Source: a virus
UHGV virus genome: UHGV-1364187
Strand: one strand, 5' to 3'
DNA length: 64,000 bases
Part shown: positions 1,536 through 60,992 of the stretch, one piece after another
How positions within the stretch are numbered: the stretch's first letter is position 1
How the letters are laid out: each line of letters begins with the position of its first letter
Translations under genes and position numbers: made by a program
Notes under the pieces: model-generated
What the model saw: the letters and a program-made list of their open reading frames with translations, nothing else
The model's database searches: none
Told to the model about the DNA's origin: nothing

Positions 1536-1916
1536 ATGGAAACAAAACAACTAGTATCACCAGCAGTTATAGTGTCAGCAGAAGAAAGGAATGCTAATTA
1601 TGATAATTTTGATAAGTATTATCTTGTCTTATTAGTATTTAATACAGATCAAGGAGAAGAAAGAGATTGGGTTGTAAAAAGAGGTCGTAAAGAAGCATAT
1701 GATCTATTAAAAGATTACATTCAAAATGATCAATATTTTGATTCTATTGCATCAAAAATTCTTGTTAATGGAAATACATTAGGAGACGAATTATGTGTTG
1801 CTAAATTTATGAGCATTATGCAATTAAGATTTAAAGATAATGAATTTAATATTGACAACTATGTTGAACCAGAAGAATACGATATTGAAGAGGCTAACAT
1901 ATTACCAGAAGAATAA
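1536..1916 (+). CDS. hypothetical acidic protein; N-terminus carries the VSPAVIV motif
   Basis: 126-aa ORF with RBS AAAGGAGAG and the conserved promoter element upstream. Confidence 0.55.
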   Translation: METKQLVSPAVIVSAEERNANYDNFDKYYLVLLVFNTDQGEERDWVVKRGRKEAYDLLKDYIQNDQYFDSIASKILVNGNTLGDELCVAKFMSIMQLRFKDNEFNIDNYVEPEEYDIEEANILPEE

Positions 1917-1933
1917 AAAAGGAGTGAATCAAG

Positions 1934-2398
1934 ATGGCAAAACCAAATAATAAAAACAAAAAACAAAATCAAGACTATTTTAGCAAATCAATTCAACAAA
2001 AAGGAGAAGGATTTATTCAAACGAAATCTCCACAAGAATTACAAAGAGATGCTATTAGAATCTTTAGAGATATTGCTAGAGGTAATATCGATTTAGAAAA
2101 GATGGCTCAATATATGATGGACCAGACAATGTTGACAAATATGATCATAGCAGCAAAAGGAAAACTTACAGCAGAGACAATTAAACGTGATGGTGTTTCT
2201 ATGCTATACTCAGAACAATTAAGAAATCCAATGATTCAAGATACTAGTATGGTAGAAACTGTATTACAAAATCAAATGGCATTAGTAGAAGTATATACAA
2301 TTATTTGTAATATGCTTGAACAAGTGCAATTTACTAATGACCCTGCATGGTTATATACATTAGCTGCACAACTTAGTAGCTATAAGTATATAATTTAA
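1934..2398 (+). CDS. hypothetical protein
   Basis: 154-aa ORF with RBS AAAAAGGAG, packed tightly after the previous gene. Confidence 0.5.
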   Translation: MAKPNNKNKKQNQDYFSKSIQQKGEGFIQTKSPQELQRDAIRIFRDIARGNIDLEKMAQYMMDQTMLTNMIIAAKGKLTAETIKRDGVSMLYSEQLRNPMIQDTSMVETVLQNQMALVEVYTIICNMLEQVQFTNDPAWLYTLAAQLSSYKYII

Positions 2399-2433
2399 CT
2401 TATTAATAATCTATTAAAAAAGGAGGAAAAATA

Positions 2434-2814
2434 ATGACACAATCAGATATCACTGAATTCAAACCGTATATGAAAGAAGATGACATATTTGTAATCATTA
2501 CTGGAAGTCAATATTCTATTATCAATACACCATCAACACCAGTTATCTTTGATGACGCTAAACAAAGAATATATTATTTTTCTATCTCTAATCATAGAAC
2601 AAATAATACACATAACGGTAATAAAAGATTTAGAGAAATGCAAATATTTGAATATGAACAAATTGAAAGTATTATTCTCATTCAAGATGTAGATGATATC
2701 ATTAAAGTTGCACAGGCTAAAGGTATTACTGGAAGTGATTTAGACCGTGTTAAGAAAGCATTAAGTGATAATCATGGTACTTATATCAATGAGAATGAAA
2801 ATGTAAAAGGTTAA
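2434..2814 (+). CDS. hypothetical protein
   Basis: 126-aa ORF with RBS AAAGGAGG. Confidence 0.5.
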   Translation: MTQSDITEFKPYMKEDDIFVIITGSQYSIINTPSTPVIFDDAKQRIYYFSISNHRTNNTHNGNKRFREMQIFEYEQIESIILIQDVDDIIKVAQAKGITGSDLDRVKKALSDNHGTYINENENVKG

Positions 2815-2884
2815 GATTTAAAACAACTGCAAACTATACAGTAATTATAGTTTGCAGTTAATAAAAAAGTGATAGTAAACAAAA

Positions 2885-2902
2885 TTTCAATTATATATTA
2901 TT
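2885..2902 (+). promoter_or_regulatory. conserved early-promoter element
   Basis: TTTCAATTATATATTATT upstream of the 2973 gene. Confidence 0.45.
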
Positions 2903-2972
2903 AACGTGTAAACAAGTAGTTAATCAACTACATTGTATAAAAATAATTTAAAATTTCAAGGAGGAATTAATT

Positions 2973-9771: not shown

Positions 9772-9866
9772 AAATTATATACGTCTACAATTTTTACACC
9801 GTAGACGTATATAATTTAACATCTATATAAATTTTATATTACTTTAGAAAAGGAGGTTAGAATGTA

Positions 9867-21523: not shown

Positions 21524-22170
21524 ATGACTACAATTAATAGTGATGATTTAGATTTTATCAAAGGAATGACAGTATCAAATATTTTCGATGGAGTAACTGA
21601 GCCTTTTACTTCTGTAACTATCAAAGATGATTTATATACTAAACTTTTTACAATTCAAACTCATAATAATGACCATAATGATATTGATCCTTGAGAACAA
21701 TTATTTGTTGTAGATTTTATCAATTATAGATACAAAGCAAATGGGTATGAATTAAATAAAATACCATATACTGGTATTGAAGATTTTAAGATAATTATAA
21801 ATATTAATACAAATCCAAATAATTTCCATTGTACTTATGCTTGTACAAATAAAAAAAACCATTTATTGATATTATAGCTTTAAGAACAGATGATAATAAA
21901 GTAGATTTCTATGGACTTAATAGAGTAAATGGTACTAGATTATTAAGTAGATTAAGTATTGGAAATATTTCATGTATTGATTTTTATAGAGTAGACTATA
22001 TAAAAGAACATGAATGGACTGATACGATAACAAGTGAAAAGAAAAATGATAAAGAAAGATATATTAAATGCTACTATCCTAACGTCGCTTATATGAGCGG
22101 TATTACAAATAAGATAACAGCTTTAGAAAATAGGGTAAAAGAACTAGAAGAAAAATTAACAGTTTCATAA
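21524..22170 (+). pseudogene. disrupted ORF with an in-frame TGA at 21691-21693 and a frame change at an A8 tract (~21847-21854)
   Basis: Translation stays open and protein-like for about 61 codons after the TGA. It then continues in another frame after the A8 run through to 22170. Confidence 0.35.
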
Positions 22171-22201
22171 GAAAATAAATAATACGAAGGAGTTGTTTAT
22201 A

Positions 22202-35608: not shown

Positions 35609-36457
35609 TTACTCTTCCCCCTTTTTAAATATATTTGGAACTGTTATAAAATTATCAGATATAGTTCCAGCCTCATTTAATGTAGTATGAATAATATGTT
35701 CTTTATTATAAATTACATCTGGAATATTCATACCACGTTTTAATACTTCTATGTCAATATCATTACCGTCTGAATGAATAGCATATACATTTGACATAAA
35801 TTTTTTAACTTTTTCTTCATCACCATTAAATAATGATGTTACTCTATAAATAAATTTATCAATATTCATATGTGGATTATCAGGATAACTTTGTAAAGTT
35901 AAATCTTGATAGAATTGGTCAAATTCTGCTATATGTTTGGCTAATCCAACAAATTTGACAGATTTATCAAATTCAATATCAGATGAATCACCAGAATAGT
36001 ATATATAACCATTATAGTGATTTATAGCTAATGCATAACAGTTTTTATATTCCCCATGTTCTACTGGAACAAATAAAATTTCTGTGTCCATAATATCATT
36101 GTAATAATCTTTTACTTCATACATTAACGGATCAACTTTGCACATTCCAAGATATGCTACAATTGAACCTTTATCTGGAAAATATACGGTTGGCTTAATA
36201 CCTTTTATATAATTACAATATTCAATTAAAGAACCTAAACTGCCTACATGATCTGAATGAAGATGAGTAATAATAATATTAACTGTTTTAATATTATCAT
36301 CTATAAGTTTAAGTCTAAGAATCTGTTTAAAAATATCACCACCACAGTCTATAAGTGTAAATACATTATATTCTGGTAACACGAAAAATGCTGAATTGTT
36401 GTGTTGATCTTCATTAAAACAACTTCCTCTACCAATAAAATTTAATAATTGTTCCAT
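35609..36457 (-). CDS. metallo-beta-lactamase-fold hydrolase
   Basis: ITHLHSDHVGSLGSL (HxHxDH). C-terminus ITVPNIFKKGEE carries the shared motif. Confidence 0.65.
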   Translation of the reverse strand: MEQLLNFIGRGSCFNEDQHNNSAFFVLPEYNVFTLIDCGGDIFKQILRLKLIDDNIKTVNIIITHLHSDHVGSLGSLIEYCNYIKGIKPTVYFPDKGSIVAYLGMCKVDPLMYEVKDYYNDIMDTEILFVPVEHGEYKNCYALAINHYNGYIYYSGDSSDIEFDKSVKFVGLAKHIAEFDQFYQDLTLQSYPDNPHMNIDKFIYRVTSLFNGDEEKVKKFMSNVYAIHSDGNDIDIEVLKRGMNIPDVIYNKEHIIHTTLNEAGTISDNFITVPNIFKKGEE

Positions 36458-37283: not shown

Positions 37284-37694
37284 TTATTCTACTTCATACA
37301 CATCATATTGTGCATGTGAGATATTATAATCAAACCCTATTACATATTTTCTATCAGGATCATCTATAAGTTTTTGTATCTCTTTTGGTACTATATTAAT
37401 TATATTACCAACTCCAAAAGATATACATGTACTATCATAATTATCTTTATTTGTACTTGGTACTATCACCTTATGTTTTTTCACTTTACAAGTACAGTTA
37501 TCTAATGTATATTGATTAATACTATATATATTATAATAAATTTTACTATCGTCTAATGTTTCTAATATAGGACCATTCTCTTTGAGTAACTTATCTAAAT
37601 AATGAATATACAATGCTCTATCTTGATTCATATATACTGTTCTTTCTAAACTATCTTTTAATTTATTTACATCTAATTCGAGATTTATTAACAT
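37284..37694 (-). CDS. hypothetical protein
   Basis: 136-aa ORF. Bidirectional terminator hairpin at 37249-37288. Confidence 0.45.
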   Translation of the reverse strand: MLINLELDVNKLKDSLERTVYMNQDRALYIHYLDKLLKENGPILETLDDSKIYYNIYSINQYTLDNCTCKVKKHKVIVPSTNKDNYDSTCISFGVGNIINIVPKEIQKLIDDPDRKYVIGFDYNISHAQYDVYEVE

Positions 37695-37960
37695 GATAAT
37701 TCACTCCTTTTATTTTTCATATTTTGTTTACGAGCAATAGTAGCTCTTATTAAACATTCTCTTTTATTTTTCTTAATTACTTTTACAACTTTTTGATACC
37801 TTTTCTTACTTAGTTTACGTAATCTTACAGTTAAGTCCAGATGTACTGTAGATTTACTAACGCCGAATACTTCTGCTGTTTCTCTTAGAGTAGATTTGTT
37901 TTTTACATAATAATCCGCTTCATCTAAAATCCTTTGTTTAATACGTGCATTATTTCTCAT
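37688..37960 (-). CDS. SpoIIID-like HTH transcription regulator
   Basis: IKQRIL...YYVKNKSTLRETAEVFGVSKSTVHLDLTVRL aligns with B. subtilis SpoIIID IKERTIKIGKYIVETKKTVRVIAKEFGVSKSTVHKDLTERL. RBS AAAGGAGG. Conserved promoter upstream. Confidence 0.7.
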   Translation of the reverse strand: MRNNARIKQRILDEADYYVKNKSTLRETAEVFGVSKSTVHLDLTVRLRKLSKKRYQKVVKVIKKNKRECLIRATIARKQNMKNKRSELSC

Positions 37961-37984
37961 AACTAAATCCTCCTTTAATAATCT

Positions 37985-38016
37985 ATATTCATATATATAA
38001 TATATAATTGAAAATA
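37985..38016 (-). promoter_or_regulatory. conserved early-promoter element
   Basis: Minus-strand TTTTCAATTATATATTATATATATGAATATAG, then AAAGGAGG and the ATG of the SpoIIID-like gene. Confidence 0.5.
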
Positions 38017-38064
38017 TTATTACTTGAACATTTACATAATAACTTGTTAAGGAGGAATTGTAAT

Positions 38065-39021
38065 ATGAATGAAACTCAGTTTTTAAAGAAACTTAATGAA
38101 ACATATTTATTTAATGTCACAGACAATTATAGAATTATGATGACTAAGGCTGTAGTTGAATCTGATAGATTGAATATCAGAGATGACAAATTTGAAGATA
38201 TTAGAGCTTCTGTTAGTAGAAGACAAGTAAACTCAGTTATTAGTAGAACTATGAAATCTCCAGATGTTGTATTTATTAAACCTAGTATTCCATTACCAAG
38301 AGCATTAAAAGTATTTACTGTAAAGGATATTAAAACTCCTGGTAACCCATTAAAAGTATTCATAGATATATCAGAAATTATCTATGAAAAAGATGGTGAA
38401 TTTAAAATCGCTTCTGTAGATAAATTAATCGCTTATCTCACATCAGCAATGATGCAATTAATCTACAATTCAGAGCCTAATAGACTTATTAGTAATACAA
38501 CATTAATTGCTCCACTTAGAAGTGGGTTTGCTCAATTGGTATCATACATAATAGATTATCTATATAAGACTAGTAATCTTGACGGTATGAGAGATATGAT
38601 TAAACATATGGCTTCAATGTATTTTGATATTAATATTCTTAAAAGAGATTATAATATATCAAAAGATAGTATAGATGCAGCTGCATTAAAAATATCTGGA
38701 TTATCTAATAGACAGTTGGATGTATTAGAAATCTATACAGAAGATGATACATTTGATAATATTAAAACATTTGTAGAAACATTAAATGAATTACTTAAAG
38801 TACAAAAACTAACTATAGATGTTTTTATGAAAAAATGGTTAGACTTATGTGGTTCTGGTACTCAATTTGCATTAGAATATTTCCCATCATTGTCAGATAT
38901 GTTTACTAATGCTTATTGTTTATCATATATCAATAACCAAAAGACTATAGAAAAGATTGTAGGAAAAGATTTATCTTTATATTCATCTAAGCTTATAGCT
39001 TTAGGAGGAGGATTGATCTAG
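38065..39021 (+). CDS. hypothetical protein
   Basis: Start at the ATG after AAGGAGG. The track's 38008 start lies inside the promoter region. Confidence 0.5.
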   Translation: MNETQFLKKLNETYLFNVTDNYRIMMTKAVVESDRLNIRDDKFEDIRASVSRRQVNSVISRTMKSPDVVFIKPSIPLPRALKVFTVKDIKTPGNPLKVFIDISEIIYEKDGEFKIASVDKLIAYLTSAMMQLIYNSEPNRLISNTTLIAPLRSGFAQLVSYIIDYLYKTSNLDGMRDMIKHMASMYFDINILKRDYNISKDSIDAAALKISGLSNRQLDVLEIYTEDDTFDNIKTFVETLNELLKVQKLTIDVFMKKWLDLCGSGTQFALEYFPSLSDMFTNAYCLSYINNQKTIEKIVGKDLSLYSSKLIALGGGLI

Positions 39022-43584: not shown

Positions 43585-43833
43585 TCATGCTAGATAGATA
43601 AATGCAATAACTTCACGTTTAGCAATATTCATATTATGACCATGAGATCTAACAATATTTCTAAGTTGAAGTGTAAGTTTTAGTGTTGTACCTCTTGCAA
43701 TAATAGAATCATGTTTCATTAATTTAGATTCTACTCTTGCCTCTTCAGCATCACGTAATGATGTGCTTGCCATTACTTTGGTATCATCAATCCTTCTAGT
43801 ATCATAGACAATTTTCATTAATTCTAATCCCAT
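43585..43833 (-). CDS. hypothetical protein; the ORF stays open upstream to about 43980 with no canonical start codon
   Basis: An in-frame, protein-like extension reaches a strong AAAGGAG at about 43995. Only ATT/ATA triplets sit at the appropriate spacing there. Confidence 0.35.
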   Translation of the reverse strand: MGLELMKIVYDTRRIDDTKVMASTSLRDAEEARVESKLMKHDSIIARGTTLKLTLQLRNIVRSHGHNMNIAKREVIAFIYLA

Positions 43834-44060
43834 TCCAGTAATAATGTCTTCATTCTTTGCAATGAAACCTTTTAATTCATTATGAAGTTGGACGAATTTT
43901 TCTTCATATTGTTCTTCTGTGAATTCTTTTCTAGTTGATTGTTCTGCTGCTACACCTGATAATAATTTTGCTACTGTTTTTATAATTAAACAACTCCTTT
44001 AATATATAATATAGTTTTTATTTGAGTATAATACATATTATTTATACTATACTCACCTAA

Positions 44061-44080
44061 ATAATATATAATTGAAAATT
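44061..44080 (-). promoter_or_regulatory. conserved early-promoter element
   Basis: Minus-strand AATTTTCAATTATATATTAT upstream of the 43980/43833 gene. Confidence 0.4.
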
Positions 44081-44090
44081 TAGACCTTTA

Positions 44091-44134
44091 CAAAAAATAT
44101 AGATAGAGAGATACATATCTCTCTATCTTTTTAT
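44091..44134 (-). terminator. AGAGAG-core hairpin terminator
   Basis: Stem agatagagagat/atctctctatct with loop acat, flanked by A- and T-runs. Confidence 0.55.
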
Positions 44135-48588: not shown

Positions 48589-48780
48589 CTGTCAAGTTTA
48601 CATCCTGCTATATTACAAGTAATTAGATATTTGGATTTAATAAGATTCAATGATTTTTTTACTTAACGTTTTTATTAAATGCTTACATGTTTCTTTAGTT
48701 AAATCCTTAGCTACTGATTTGATTAAAGTGCTTTTCTTTTTCATAATAGAATCTCTCCTTTAAAATATATTATACTATTT

Positions 48781-48810
48781 TCATATTTATAATATATAAT
48801 TGAAAAATAT
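48781..48810 (-). promoter_or_regulatory. conserved early-promoter element
   Basis: Minus-strand ATATTTTTCAATTATATATTATAAATATGA upstream of the small ORF at 48741 and the AAA operon. Confidence 0.45.
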
Positions 48811-48841
48811 ATTAGAAGAGTAAAAATACTCTTCTAATATA

Positions 48842-50026
48842 TTATAATTGTTTAAATGATCCTTCTTGAATATATCCACGTATATCTTTATATTTACATG
48901 CGTATACAGAAATACCATTTATAATTTGTTTCTTAGTAGATGTAAGGATAGTATCTCCTTTTTTACCAGTACATAAAATTTTAAGATCTTTATCTCTTAT
49001 ATTAGCACTGTTTACTAATACAGCATTATATCTTTCATCTATTCTTTCTACATATTGAGCATATACCCAACCTCTATCAGTTTTATACCATCCACCTTTT
49101 TCTTCTAAAAGACTAATAACTTCACCATTTTTATATGTTCCTACAATGGTAGCGTTTGTTGAAGGTGTTTGTCTTATATTTAAAGATGGTGCGGCTATAA
49201 CTTTACCTGTTGCACCTGTGATATTTAATGATGTTGAATTGTTAGTATTAGAATCATTCATTATATCTAAAGCTATATCTTTAGAATACTTAGAACTAGA
49301 AGACATGAATCCAGATACATTATCAACTTTAACTCTATACCACCCATCAACAGTTTCGTATACATTTAATTCTGTTCCTGTTGGTAAAGATTTAATGACA
49401 TCATATACTTGATTAGGTCCTTTTCTTATATTCATATTATCTATCAATTTTATTCTCTTATCGATAGAATCTTCTAATGCTACGTTTCTTCCATTCATCA
49501 TATCTTGATATAAATCTTGAACTTTTAATTTAAACTCTTTCCAAGCATTTATATCAGATATATAAAATGCTGGGCAATTCTTTCCAGTAATATCATAATG
49601 TCTATATACATCATTAATTGTAAGGTGATATTTCTTTAGAAGATATGCAGTTAACCAAGCAGTGTTTTCCATAACCTTACTAAAGTTTGAATCTTTATTA
49701 ACACACATCTCTATTGAAATTGTAGTATAGTTTGGTTGTAATCCATTATGAAATAATTTCTTTCCAGTAGCAGTATATGATTTAGCTCCTACTGACCATG
49801 CTACTTCATTATCTGGAATTGCTTGTAATATGATTGTATCATCTACTAAATACTGTGTACTTGCATAAGTCGTAGTAGTTTCGTAATAATTCCTATTAGC
49901 TCTAGCATTAGCACGATTACCATAATTAGCTGTGTAATGAATTACTATACCTTTTCTTATAGTGCATTTAGTCATAGGTCTATTCCTAGTACTTGTTAAT
50001 AAATCTTGTGTTATTGTTGTTACCAT
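48842..50026 (-). CDS. amidase_2/PGRP N-acetylmuramoyl-L-alanine amidase endolysin with two SH3b-like domains
   Basis: GIVIHYTAN...AWSVGAK...ISIEMC matches the Amidase_2 pattern. C-terminal GTELNVYETVDGWYRV and GEVISLLEEKGGWYKT look like SH3b repeats. RBS AAAAAGGAG. Confidence 0.75.
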   Translation of the reverse strand: MVTTITQDLLTSTRNRPMTKCTIRKGIVIHYTANYGNRANARANRNYYETTTTYASTQYLVDDTIILQAIPDNEVAWSVGAKSYTATGKKLFHNGLQPNYTTISIEMCVNKDSNFSKVMENTAWLTAYLLKKYHLTINDVYRHYDITGKNCPAFYISDINAWKEFKLKVQDLYQDMMNGRNVALEDSIDKRIKLIDNMNIRKGPNQVYDVIKSLPTGTELNVYETVDGWYRVKVDNVSGFMSSSSKYSKDIALDIMNDSNTNNSTSLNITGATGKVIAAPSLNIRQTPSTNATIVGTYKNGEVISLLEEKGGWYKTDRGWVYAQYVERIDERYNAVLVNSANIRDKDLKILCTGKKGDTILTSTKKQIINGISVYACKYKDIRGYIQEGSFKQL

Positions 50027-53996: not shown

Positions 53997-54087
53997 TTTT
54001 GATTCCTCCATTTATTTTAAATTTAATTAGAATATTTTTATTCTAATCACTTATATAATATATATAATCAAAATTTTAAAATATTAC

Positions 54088-57451: not shown

Positions 57452-57480
57452 AAAATCATCTCCTTTATAATTTTATTCAT

Positions 57481-57510
57481 ATTTATAATATATTATTGAA
57501 AATCATTTTA
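57481..57510 (-). promoter_or_regulatory. conserved early-promoter element
   Basis: Minus-strand TTTTCAATAATATATTATAAAT upstream of the 57451 gene, in the divergent region shared with the tail fibre gene. Confidence 0.45.
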
Positions 57511-57578
57511 TATGTAAGTTCACGTCATTTTAACATGCTAATAATTAAGTAAATATATTAAAAAAGGAGTGATTAAGA

Positions 57579-60500
57579 ATGGCTATTACAAATTTTACTA
57601 ATAAAGCTAAACGTTTCTCAGTATTAGTATTACCATATGAGAAAAAAGACATGGCTGTAGCTAAAGAGTTAATTATTGATTATGATAATGGTCATATCTA
57701 TGTAGTAGATAAAACTGGTACTAGAATTATTAGTATCACAAAAGATTTACAAGATTCTATTGATAATATCATAAACAATGGTGGGAATATTATCAATGTA
57801 ACAAATCCTAGTGATAATACAACACAAATTTTAAACGACGTATTAAAGAATATATATAATTATGTCAATGCTTCAGTAGAAGGATTATGTATTAAGAAAC
57901 CAGCTAGATTATTATGTGATACTAATATAGCTGTACTTAATGGATTACCTGGAGATATTGATAATGTAACAGTTAATGATGGAGATGATATTCTCCTTAT
58001 TGCACAAGATGATAAAAGATTAAATGGTAAATGGAAAGTAAATGCTAGTGGTGATTGGAAAAGATCAGATGATCTTAATTCTCAAACAGAACTTGTTAGA
58101 AGTGCATTCTTCTTTATTGATGAAGGGGATAAATATAAAAGTACTGGATGGTTATTAACAACTGATAATCCAGTTATTGATTCTTCTGATTTAGAGTTTG
58201 AAATATTTTCTAGACAAGAAGACATTCTAGCTGGAACTGGTTTAGTAAGAACTGGTAATGAATTTTCATTAGCGGAATGTGTTATTCCTGGAACTGCAAC
58301 TAAAGTAAGATGGGACCAATATGGTAGAATTGTAGGATGGGAAAATCCTACAACATTATTTGAATATGGTATCACTGATGCTGTTCCGTTATCACATATA
58401 GGTTCTGGTGGAGATCAACATGCTATTGTCACTGTAGATGAGCATGGTTTTTCGTCTAAAGAAGATAAACAAATGCTTGACTCTCTCATGCCAACCATTG
58501 AAGATTTGGAAATAAAAACAAACGAGAAATTAAATATTAAGTCAGAAATTGAATTTATATCACAAGATCCGATAGAAATTCAATTACAAGGAGAAACAGA
58601 GATTGTAAATGACCTACTTACAGATTCTGCAACTAAAGCTTTAGCTGCTGGACAAGGTAAAGTATTATACGATTTATTAAACTATCTATTTCAAAATACT
58701 AATGAGGATGGAACTCCATATACAAAATTATGGATGGGAACATTATCTCAATATTATAATCTATTAGAAAAAGATCCCGTTACTTTATACATGTCAACCG
58801 ATTATGTAAATGAAAATACAGCACTTTCTATGGGTTCTAATGTAGAAGAGATTATTATGATGCTTCAATTAATGCAATCTTCTAAAGTAAGTAAAGAGGG
58901 AGATATTGTTAATGGAGATCTTATTGTCGGTTCTTCTGTTAAAAACCAAAATCTTAAAGTGTATGGTAATATTTATATTAACGGTGTATTATTAGATCAA
59001 GCATTTGCACCAATAGATCATGAACATGATGATATGGTTTCACAAATAGACTTTGATGCTAAATTAAAGAAAAAAGCTGATAAATATCATACTCATGTTA
59101 TACCAGATGTTGAAGGTCTTAAAGAAGCTTTGGACAGTAAAGCTGCTATAGACCATACACATAATTTAATATATTATGATAAAGAAGAATTAGATTTCTT
59201 ATTATCTACAAAAGCTCCAGTAAACCATAAACATAAAGTAGCCGATATTATAGATTTATTTACTAAAGGTGATAGTACTGGTGCTAAAATGGAATTATGG
59301 TTAAAAAATATGATTAGTGATCCATTACATAGAACTGTAACCGATGCTCAAATTGCAAGATGGGAACAAATGGTTAATGGAACTAGTACTAATACTGGAG
59401 GAATATCTAAACTTGAATTAGACTCACATAATAACGATTCTAATGCACATCCAGATATTAGAGAATCTATTAGAGAAATTTTAGACGAGTTAGGCTCTGC
59501 AAGTTTAACTTCTAATTTAAATATTAAAGAATCTATTAATGAATTATATACAAAATTACCAACAGTAACAAATTCAGCAAAATTAATGAAAGAAGCTTGT
59601 AATGTAATTATAACACAGGATAATACAACTAACGTTCCTATTGGATTTACTGGATTTGATCCAGATATTCATACATTATTAGTATTTAAAAATAGTACGT
59701 ATTATCATCCAATAGAAGATTATACAATGAATGGAACTACAAGTATTGATTTAACTAAAGAAATTGTTCCATCTGGTACTATATTTACATTTGTTGTTTT
59801 ATGGGTAGAAGGCGACGTATTAGGTGGAGGATCTGGTTCTGGTTCAATATCTCAAGATATTTATGATCTATTAGATAATAAAGCTGATCTTGATCATGAA
59901 CACAAATTAAAAGATCTTATAGATGATCCATTACATAGAACTGTAACAGATGCTATGATTGATAGATGGAATAATGGAACAACTAGTAGTGGAAATAATA
60001 ACGGAATAGATGCAGCTATGCTTATTGCTGCCCATAATGTAGATACTACATCTCATGATGATCTCAGAACTAAAGTGGATGAAATTTATAACAATATGTC
60101 CAATGTTTTATTTAAGACAAAAGTTATAGAACTTATTCCGACAAGAGATAATCAAACAGAATTTAGTGTAAATATGAATGATTTAGCTAAAGAAAAATAT
60201 GGTCATTTTGTAATGTTTAATTCTACTGCTACATCAGATTATGTATTGTCTGATTATAAATTGAAATTTAATGAACCATGTAATTTAACTGATAAAATAA
60301 AATTAGTATTATTCTGGATTGATGGTAATATTCTAGTTCAAAATTCAGCAGCTGGATCTGTTGCTTGGGATTCATTAACACAAGCTGTTAAGAATACAAT
60401 TAATAATAAGATTGATAAAACAGAAGTATATACTAAAACAGAATTAGACACTCTTATAAATTCACTAGCAAGCACTACGATAACAGATGATTTACAAAGA

Positions 60501-60992
60501 CAAATTGATGATTTAAAAAATAACAGTACAAGTTCTAGTAATGTATATACAAAATCAGAAATTGATACAATTTTATTAAATAAAGCTAATAGTGGTGATA
60601 CTTATACTAAAACAGAAATAGATAATAAGTTTCAAACTATAGATAATGCAATAAATAGTGCTGCTAATATGGCAACTAAGACTGATCTTGATAATTATTA
60701 TACTAAAACAGAAATAGATAATAAGTTTCAAACTATAGATAATGCAATAAATAGTGCTGCTAATATGGCAACTAAGGCTGATCTTGATAATTATTACAAT
60801 AAGACAGAGATAGATAATAAACTATCTGGTTATTATTCTAAAACTGAAATTGATAATAAAATAAATGCTCTATCAAATAGAATAACAGCACTTGAATCTA
60901 GAAAAACATTAGTTCCTATTACAGAAGCAGAGTATAATGCGTTATCAACAGCAAATAAAAATGATACTACAAAAATATACGCAATATATTAA
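57579..60992 (+). CDS. long tail fibre protein
   Basis: 1137 aa. Repeated DPLHRTVTDA.I.RW blocks, Gly-rich linker GGGSGSGS, C-terminal YTKTEIDNK repeats including an exact 96-bp tandem duplication. RBS AAAAAAGGAG. Confidence 0.6.
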   Translation: MAITNFTNKAKRFSVLVLPYEKKDMAVAKELIIDYDNGHIYVVDKTGTRIISITKDLQDSIDNIINNGGNIINVTNPSDNTTQILNDVLKNIYNYVNASVEGLCIKKPARLLCDTNIAVLNGLPGDIDNVTVNDGDDILLIAQDDKRLNGKWKVNASGDWKRSDDLNSQTELVRSAFFFIDEGDKYKSTGWLLTTDNPVIDSSDLEFEIFSRQEDILAGTGLVRTGNEFSLAECVIPGTATKVRWDQYGRIVGWENPTTLFEYGITDAVPLSHIGSGGDQHAIVTVDEHGFSSKEDKQMLDSLMPTIEDLEIKTNEKLNIKSEIEFISQDPIEIQLQGETEIVNDLLTDSATKALAAGQGKVLYDLLNYLFQNTNEDGTPYTKLWMGTLSQYYNLLEKDPVTLYMSTDYVNENTALSMGSNVEEIIMMLQLMQSSKVSKEGDIVNGDLIVGSSVKNQNLKVYGNIYINGVLLDQAFAPIDHEHDDMVSQIDFDAKLKKKADKYHTHVIPDVEGLKEALDSKAAIDHTHNLIYYDKEELDFLLSTKAPVNHKHKVADIIDLFTKGDSTGAKMELWLKNMISDPLHRTVTDAQIARWEQMVNGTSTNTGGISKLELDSHNNDSNAHPDIRESIREILDELGSASLTSNLNIKESINELYTKLPTVTNSAKLMKEACNVIITQDNTTNVPIGFTGFDPDIHTLLVFKNSTYYHPIEDYTMNGTTSIDLTKEIVPSGTIFTFVVLWVEGDVLGGGSGSGSISQDIYDLLDNKADLDHEHKLKDLIDDPLHRTVTDAMIDRWNNGTTSSGNNNGIDAAMLIAAHNVDTTSHDDLRTKVDEIYNNMSNVLFKTKVIELIPTRDNQTEFSVNMNDLAKEKYGHFVMFNSTATSDYVLSDYKLKFNEPCNLTDKIKLVLFWIDGNILVQNSAAGSVAWDSLTQAVKNTINNKIDKTEVYTKTELDTLINSLASTTITDDLQRQIDDLKNNSTSSSNVYTKSEIDTILLNKANSGDTYTKTEIDNKFQTIDNAINSAANMATKTDLDNYYTKTEIDNKFQTIDNAINSAANMATKADLDNYYNKTEIDNKLSGYYSKTEIDNKINALSNRITALESRKTLVPITEAEYNALSTANKNDTTKIYAIY
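60605..60796 (+). repeat. 2 x 96-bp near-perfect tandem repeat inside the tail fibre gene
   Basis: The two copies of tactaaaacagaaatagataataagtttcaaactatagataatgcaataaatagtgctgctaatatggcaactaag[a/g]ctgatcttgataattatta differ at one base. Confidence 0.8.

Follow-up and report, generated by a model that had tools for sequence, protein, structure and literature searches.

Genomic setting

The stretch of DNA analysed here (the window, 64,000 nt) corresponds to bases 102605-166604 of the 256,505-bp metagenome contig ERZ27229639:k119_250412, and the same jumbo phage is present as fragments in several gut-metagenome assemblies. The window has a G+C content of 24-34% and is 91.6% coding. It encodes a RecD-like helicase, GyrB, GyrA, a DnaB-like helicase, an Mre11-like phosphatase and a metallo-beta-lactamase, as well as a Cas4-like nuclease, a SpoIIID-like protein, two AAA ATPases, an amidase/SH3 endolysin, a Bro-N protein, a DHH phosphoesterase and tail-fibre-like proteins. 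The first six of these, together with a baseplate fragment, are the seven window proteins with homologues in phage AR9, to which they are 25-33% identical. Neither a megablast search with 10 kb of the window nor a tblastn search with the virion protein 38083-39021 matched any phage record. In IMG/VR, the DnaB-like helicase query returned no relatives, and none of the loci that were fetched exceeds ~57% protein identity to this phage.

Two regions of the window deserve a separate mention. The metallo-beta-lactamase-fold protein (35609-36457, minus strand), which is the homologue of AR9 g022, gives a sub-threshold match to the anti-Pycsar protein Apyc1 (27.5 bits, cutoff 50). Within the tightly packed tail-fibre block, the 498 bp at 21695-22192 hold no ORF of at least 50 aa and could be a decayed gene or a region of short ORFs; a gathering-threshold Rfam scan found no match there or elsewhere in the window.

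A repeated intergenic element

The window carries six copies of an element of the form (T)TTTCAATTATATATTAT-N6-G, where none is expected by chance (Table 1). Four of them match the 27-mer TTTTCAATTATATATTATAAATATGAA with at most two mismatches, against 0.00 expected from 100 dinucleotide-preserving shuffles. The remaining two, 2884-2910 (+) and 44052-44078 (-), agree with it only in the left 18 nt, which read (A/T)TTTCAATTATATATTAT, and in the TG of positions 24-25. The original prediction, whose coordinates were correct to a few bases, had listed six near-identical copies, which are better described as four near-identical and two partial ones. All six can be read as AAT[T/A]ATATATTAT-(6N)-G, preceded by a fixed TTTC 5' extension, and both the G that follows the 6-nt spacer and the T at -1 are invariant (6/6). 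Since the flanks of the six copies are mutually unrelated, the element is a discrete signal and not a piece of a larger duplication.

The placement of the copies is equally constrained. Non-coding DNA makes up 8.4% of the window and contains all six, each in sense orientation to the adjacent downstream gene, and the chance of six intergenic copies under random placement is ~0.084^6 = 3.5e-7. An equal frequency in coding DNA, which the original prediction had named as evidence against itself, is therefore not what is found, and its statement that structural operons lack the element also holds, with no match above 15 bits in 8.8-32 kb to the AR9-trained weight matrix described below. Its spacing of 20-35 bp to an AAAGGAG ribosome-binding site (RBS) applies to four copies; in the other two, 2884 and 44078, about 50-60 nt separate the element from the RBS. 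When the search is extended to 82.9 kb of the 256,505-bp contig (the window and 10 kb on each side), ten strict AANNATATATTAT-N6-G matches are obtained, and the four that lie beyond the window are likewise intergenic and in sense, one of them preceding a tubulin-like gene.

Terminator-like hairpins are strongly enriched in the regions concerned: 37.7-57.6 kb contains 17 (2.2 expected) and 1-10 kb contains 9 (2.2 expected). Three of the copies are directly preceded, on the transcribed strand, by such a hairpin (1450-1475, 44101-44128 and 48806-48843, the last abutting copy 48780-48806), and a further hairpin (2824-2860), scored on the minus strand only, lies before copy 2884. A hairpin followed by the element is the classic terminator-promoter arrangement.

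The genes behind the element form short operons (Table 1). The SpoIIID-like gene (37688-37960, minus strand; Pfam SpoIIID, E = 8.8e-19) is the first behind its putative early promoter. As a side remark, such a regulator may allow the phage to disturb the sporulation programme in the mother cell of a spore-forming Firmicute that it infects. The minus-strand ORF 43585-43980 is open to 43980, 7-8 nt past a perfect AAAGGAG, where the codon is ATT/ATA; its first ATG (43833) lacks an RBS, the start chosen by the gene caller is 43818, and the gene probably uses a non-canonical ATT start.

Table 1. Putative promoters, leader structures and associated operons (window coordinates, except L128 where given; scores from the AR9-trained matrix).
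Feature	Sequence	Position	Strand	Bits	Details
Putative early promoter	TATTCAATTATATATTATATATATGAA	1482-1508	+	22.0	2 mismatches to the 27-mer; predicted +1 G 1506; leader 30 nt to ATG at 1536
Putative early promoter	ATTTCAATTATATATTATTAACGTGTA	2884-2910	+	21.5	predicted +1 G 2908; leader 65 nt, beginning with stem-loop; downstream gene start 2973
Putative early promoter, flagged by the original prediction	TTTTCAATTATATATTATATATATGAA	37988-38014	-	22.0	predicted +1 G 37990; leader 30 nt to SpoIIID-like gene 37960-37688
Putative early promoter	TTTTCAATTATATATTATTTAGGTGAG	44052-44078	-	17.0	predicted +1 G 44054; leader ~74 nt, beginning with 12-bp stem-loop; ORF 43980-43585
Putative early promoter	TTTTCAATTATATATTATAAATATGAA	48780-48806	-	23.2	0 mismatches; predicted +1 G 48782; leader 41 nt to 35-aa ORF (start 48741)
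Putative early promoter	TTTTCAATAATATATTATAAATATGAA	57476-57502	-	18.2	1 mismatch; predicted +1 G 57478; leader 27 nt to gene 57451-57233
Candidate variant promoter before Bro-N gene	TTTGATTATATATATTATATAAGTGATT	54045-54072	-	11.3	predicted +1 G 54048
Predicted early operon		1536-2814	+		3 small genes without assigned function; ends at hairpin 2824-2860
Predicted early operon		37284-37960	-		SpoIIID-like regulator and 136-aa ORF; ends at hairpin in 37201-37283
Genes behind copy 48806		48498-47623, 47408-46236	-		35-aa ORF, then these two AAA ATPase genes (AAA domains)
Genes behind copy 57502		57451-57233, 57091-56741, 56714-56421, 56421-55528	-		last gene DHH phosphoesterase (PHROG match)
Predicted +1 stem-loops		2908-2945	+		
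Predicted +1 stem-loops		44054-44024; 54048; L128 ~6121, ~2049	-		
Late-type motifs in sense		3917, 8776, 9818, 22158, 24592, 38027, 57532	+		AR9 late consensus
Late-type motifs in sense		37237, 53303	-		AR9 late consensus
Late-type motif		15832	+		84 nt from start codon
Late-type motif	AACATTTACATA	38027-38038	+		38 nt before structural gene 38065-39021 (PHROG virion structural protein)
Late-type motif	AACATGCTAATA	57532-57543	+		47 nt before tail-fibre gene 57579-60992 (tail-fibre repeat domains)
Late-type motif	AACATCTATATA	9818-9829	+		49 nt before gene 9867

Correspondence with the early promoter of phage AR9

In AR9, which like PBS1 is a Bacillus jumbo phage (Takahashivirus), 41 early transcription start sites define the consensus AAATATATATTAT-(6N)-G(+1) (Lavysh et al. 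2017, PMC5312081). These sites were mapped by dRNA-seq, with a sample validated by primer extension, and the promoters are active without protein synthesis, which has been attributed to a multisubunit RNA polymerase that is carried in the virion and injected (PMC5312081). More generally, an AT-rich motif near -10 has been found upstream of early operons in every jumbo phage encoding these polymerases, and such motifs proved to be early promoters wherever transcripts were profiled (review, PMC7598289). Because motifs of this sort are reported in all such jumbo phages, the kind of element described here is already known.

The comparison with AR9 was made with a weight matrix built from the 32 promoters annotated in the AR9 record, to which the window contributed nothing. 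No other site in the window scores as high as the six copies (ranks 1-6), which reach 17.0-23.2 bits; the AR9 training promoters score 17.8-28.1 bits, and a Markov-simulated window gives 0.34 matches above 15 bits. The window matches that come next, at 12-15 bits, are the four quasi-palindromic copies read on their reverse strands. The correspondence extends to a long identical run: the annotated AR9 promoter 47-59 (cATTTTTCAATTATATATTATAAAgatG), taken with its flanks, has the 23-mer ATTTTTCAATTATATATTATAAA in common with the window copy 48806 and its 5' flank.

The two phages agree in the core TATATATTAT, the AA at -19/-18, the 6-nt spacer, the G(+1) and the T(-1). They also agree in the placement of the promoters, after terminators and before short operons of small or replication-type genes, in the presence of a copy of the element before a non-virion polymerase subunit gene, and in the existence of a partner late class, AACA-(6N)-TA/G, including divergent early/late pairs. 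The third base is T in the window (AAT) and A in AR9 (AAA), and the TTTC 5' extension, fixed in the window copies, is variable in AR9. In AR9 the gyrase genes stand behind an early promoter, and here behind a late-type motif only, so that the two regulons are not identical. In addition, uracil replaces thymine in AR9 DNA, and AR9 is a Bacillus phage, whereas the phage of the window is an uncultured gut phage known here from sequence alone.

The early promoters of the phiKZ-related jumbo phages phiKZ and phiR1-37 resemble the element in having a highly conserved AT-rich block of ~10 nt centred near -10, a start 6 nt downstream, and an injected multisubunit polymerase as reader that dispenses with the host enzyme. 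Their consensus, however, varies from phage to phage (PMC7598289), and the window motif is the AR9 version. For the Staphylococcus jumbo phage DC4, the published description contains no promoter consensus. The promoters of T7-like and N4 virion polymerases are also long, near-invariant and phage-specific and define a temporal class, and N4 injects its polymerase as well (PMC5312081). They are nonetheless read by unrelated single-subunit enzymes, and those of the N4 early class are hairpins; in the window phage, a split beta-type subunit is seen and a single-subunit polymerase is not.

A weaker candidate lies before the Bro-N gene, where the original prediction had proposed a variant of the element. 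The variant is indeed present, intergenic and in sense; it keeps the TATATATTAT-N6-G arrangement, and a hairpin is predicted from its +1 (z = -3.1). Its score nevertheless falls below that of every AR9 training promoter (minimum 17.8 bits) because TT replaces the AA at -19/-18, which is near-invariant in AR9 promoters. The AR9 data indicate that one deviation from the early consensus can silence a site (PMC5312081).

A partner class of late-type motifs

The AR9 late consensus is AACA-(6N)-TA/G and is read by the non-virion polymerase (PMC5312081). In the window, AACA-(6N)-T[AG] occurs 95 times, 21 of these in the 8.4% of non-coding DNA. Ten of the non-coding copies are in sense and 35-49 nt before a start codon, most of them before virion or tail genes. 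The motif often takes the form AACATCTAWATAA and precedes structural genes and some replication genes. Two intergenic regions contain divergent early/late pairs, 37961-38064 (38014 against 38027) and 57452-57578 (57502 against 57532), and the same layout is found in AR9 at g120/g121 and g152/g153 (PMC5312081). These pairs provide an independent fit with an AR9-like programme of two polymerases. As AR9 late promoters are read on uracil-containing DNA, the late-type motif also raises the question of dU-DNA in the window phage.

Polymerase genes on the contig

The gene for a 592-aa protein lies to the left of the window, at a distance of 7.8-9.5 kb. Over 576 aa, this protein has 30% identity to AR9 g089, the beta-C subunit of the non-virion polymerase (tblastn, E = 7e-66). 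It carries the Pfam domain RNA_pol_Rpb2_6, and its best solved structure is chain C of the AR9 polymerase 7S00 (E = 1.1e-66), followed by chain C of the phiKZ polymerase 7OGP. A motif copy, AATTATATATTAT-ATATAT-G, stands directly before this gene, and the order of a uvsX-like gene, promoter and beta-C gene is that of AR9 (g086, promoter at 72060, g087-g089). The recombinase is a single gene (g086) in AR9 and is split on this contig, into two adjacent minus-strand ORFs (L128 2877-3674 and 2067-2531; 40% and 41% identity to the halves of g086). The 82.9-kb stretch breaks off at its right end within an ORF whose sequence matches those parts of related contigs that show homology to AR9 g270 (beta'-N). 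This ORF is probably a beta'-N fragment, and hence a second polymerase subunit. By sequence homology, then, the contig encodes a non-virion split multisubunit polymerase of the phiKZ/AR9 type.

Subunits of the virion polymerase were sought in the same 83 kb of the 256,505-bp contig by tblastn; no homologue of AR9 g145, g189 or g264 was found there, and among the AR9 subunits used as queries only the non-virion beta-C gave a match. A profile search for g264-like proteins, a family of at least 601 clusters at 90% identity, returned no copy from this phage among the 120 matches listed. Two candidates were set aside. The g264-like cluster P0037 belongs to another phage of 250-260 kb, and the g078-like ORF at L128 6578-7309 is not counted as a virion subunit because it covers only residues 280-414 of g078 and has no polymerase match in Pfam or PDB.

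About 3.8-5 kb left of the window, a minus-strand gene (L128 4816-6003) encodes a 395-aa protein with a weak Tubulin/FtsZ match (E = 9e-5, below the Pfam cutoff), which may be a PhuZ-like phage tubulin. It is preceded by a putative early promoter with a 14-bp hairpin at +1.

Interpretation and alternative readings

The element is very probably an early promoter of an AR9/PBS1-like jumbo phage. Given its near base-for-base match to the AR9 early promoter, it most likely marks where the phage's own injected RNA polymerase begins its first genes. The signal itself would be of an established kind, the early promoter of AR9, and only its carrier, an uncultured gut jumbo phage of 256 kb, would be new. 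By analogy with AR9, the phage particle would contain a multisubunit RNA polymerase, injected along with the genome, that would recognise the block AAT(T/A)ATATATTAT at about -19 to -7 without a host sigma factor and, after a variable 6-nt spacer, would start at the invariant G within T(-1)G(+1)A(+2). This enzyme would transcribe short early operons ending at hairpin terminators, whose products would include the SpoIIID-like regulator, the two AAA ATPases, the DHH phosphoesterase and several small proteins without assigned function and, outside the window, the non-virion polymerase subunit. This second, non-virion polymerase would then read the AACA-(6N)-TA late promoters before the structural genes. 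It is from AR9 that we infer the G start site, the early timing, the presence of virion polymerase genes and the virion polymerase as the reading enzyme, start site and timing being matters of homology alone; with a protein identity to AR9 of only 25-33%, the specificity of the polymerase could in principle have drifted.

The original prediction of a temporal-class promoter is supported, the class being non-structural and probably early, as the copies follow terminators, precede genes with an RBS, are always in sense and match the AR9 early consensus. Its suggested reader, a modified host RNA polymerase, is not supported, given the lack of a consistent -35/-10 pair and the AR9-type polymerase subunit on the same contig. 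The 'phage factor' that it named as an alternative fits only loosely, in that the phage encodes the polymerase. The class was thus right and the likely enzyme wrong.

A promoter for the host RNA polymerase, carrying either its housekeeping sigma factor or a modification by a phage protein, is very unlikely, even though the element is AT-rich with TATA-like hexamers, the TG at 24-25 is followed in some copies by TATAAT/TATAGT/TAAAAT-like hexamers at 28-33, and a SpoIIID-like DNA-binding protein is encoded by the phage. The best -35/-10 pairs reach only 8-9 of 12 positions, at inconsistent places, a level equalled by random 85-nt windows (mean 8.23), and sigma-70-like sites are not enriched (173 against 192 +/- 14 expected; 71 against 75.5 +/- 7.1). 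A -10 hexamer at 28-33 would put the start inside the Shine-Dalgarno sequence in three copies, and at least 18 invariant bases far exceed the needs of sigma-A. The homologous AR9 promoters, moreover, need no new protein and are attributed to the virion polymerase (PMC5312081). Membership in the sigma-70/sigma-A class, with hexamers 16-18 nt apart at a fixed position, was rejected, the offsets differing from copy to copy. The likeness of the element to sigma-70/sigma-A promoters and to T4 late promoters (TATAAATA) is confined to an AT-rich, -10-like composition and, for T4, to two copies that contain TATAAATA; the -35/-10 geometry is absent, four of the six copies lack TATAAATA, and the conserved block lies upstream of it, so the T4-late reading was dropped too.

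The near-palindromic form of four copies, whose reverse strands score 12-15 bits, and the position of one copy directly before the SpoIIID-like gene would suit an operator, namely a TTCA-N17-TGAA site bound by a dimeric phage regulator such as a SpoIIID-like protein controlling itself and the accessory operons. This reading is highly improbable. The two half-sites are not conserved in all copies, the right one (TGAA) being missing from 2884 and 44078, and the palindromic operator was rejected as a class; the mapped AR9 promoters have the same left block with variable right sides, and an operator would not need a strict single orientation to the downstream gene. The sites of B. subtilis SpoIIID have a GACA core, which the motif lacks.

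Also unlikely is a phage-polymerase promoter whose class or enzyme form differs from AR9; the non-virion polymerase, with or without an alternative specificity subunit, might for instance use the element as a middle promoter. This reading would accommodate the fact that a search of 83 kb of the contig yielded no virion polymerase genes, and the gene set behind the motif differs from that of AR9, as with the gyrase genes that lack it; phiKZ also has a middle class, for which the form of the reading enzyme is unclear (PMC7598289). However, a motif copy precedes the non-virion beta-C gene itself, which fits transcription before the non-virion enzyme exists, the AACA-(6N)-TA class already accounts for the promoters of the non-virion polymerase, and the sequence is near-identical to the AR9 early promoters. 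An AR9-type early promoter remains the preferred reading.

Distribution, leaders and promoter extent

More than 116 IMG/VR stretches contain the exact 16-mer TTCAATTATATATTAT; many of them belong to contigs of 200-260 kb, and the AR9 genome (251,042 bp) is among them. A G follows the 6-nt spacer in 71 of 120 copies and a TG in 63 of 120; as the IMG/VR loci are ~30% G+C, ~15% G would be expected at that position. Homologues of AR9 polymerase subunits are found in 24 of 115 of the ~8-kb loci around the 16-mer, and, conversely, a locus fetched through a virion-subunit homologue and not through the motif has two matrix matches of at least 17 bits, each before a gene with an RBS. AR9-like phages appear to be common and diverse in metagenomes. 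The clusters of the g264 family come mostly from ENA and Logan metagenome assemblies, with several on contigs of 220-261 kb.

The leaders that follow the element are of two kinds. In the four long-leader copies (2908, 44054 and two in the left flank), a stem-loop is predicted at or near +1, with z = -2.9 to -7.6 (-2.9 for the 2908 copy and -5.2 for the 44054 copy), while the six short-leader copies have no predicted stable +1 stem-loop. The predicted structures could be 5' stabilisers or attenuators. The long-leader stem-loop pattern recurs in many IMG/VR copies.

The conserved stretch in this phage is ~27 nt long (TTTC + AATTATATATTAT + N5 + TGAA). In other copies, a lineage-specific block is seen ~5 nt before TTCAAT (~-34 to -28), which reads AAAAGGT in ~12 copies, AAAGATA in ~6 and TTAAAA in AR9 (examples are IMG/VR L009, L025, L038, L063, L067, L068, L112, L115 and L116); the window copies have only a weak [CG]TAA[TA] at -34 to -28. 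The block may be a second, variable promoter element. It is a tentative proposal, and one that we hold as somewhat doubtful, that the published 13-mer is a mere core of a longer, lineage-tuned promoter, one that a large clade of uncultured AR9-like gut phages has kept almost unaltered.

Significance

If the longer promoter and the leader features are functional, recognition by the virion polymerase would be more extended than has been described, and early mRNAs would carry a built-in 5' stabiliser or attenuator. From sequence, the element would delineate which genes of this 256-kb gut jumbo phage form its early regulon, among them those for a SpoIIID-like sporulation regulator, AAA ATPases, a tubulin-like protein and a polymerase subunit. 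The AR9 early promoter is kept nearly base for base, although the proteins are only ~30% identical. The 16-mer followed by N6-G is a cheap marker, which can flag AR9-like phages in metagenomes and sort their genes by temporal class, and the many promoter/polymerase pairs could help to locate the poorly understood promoter-recognising part of the virion polymerase.
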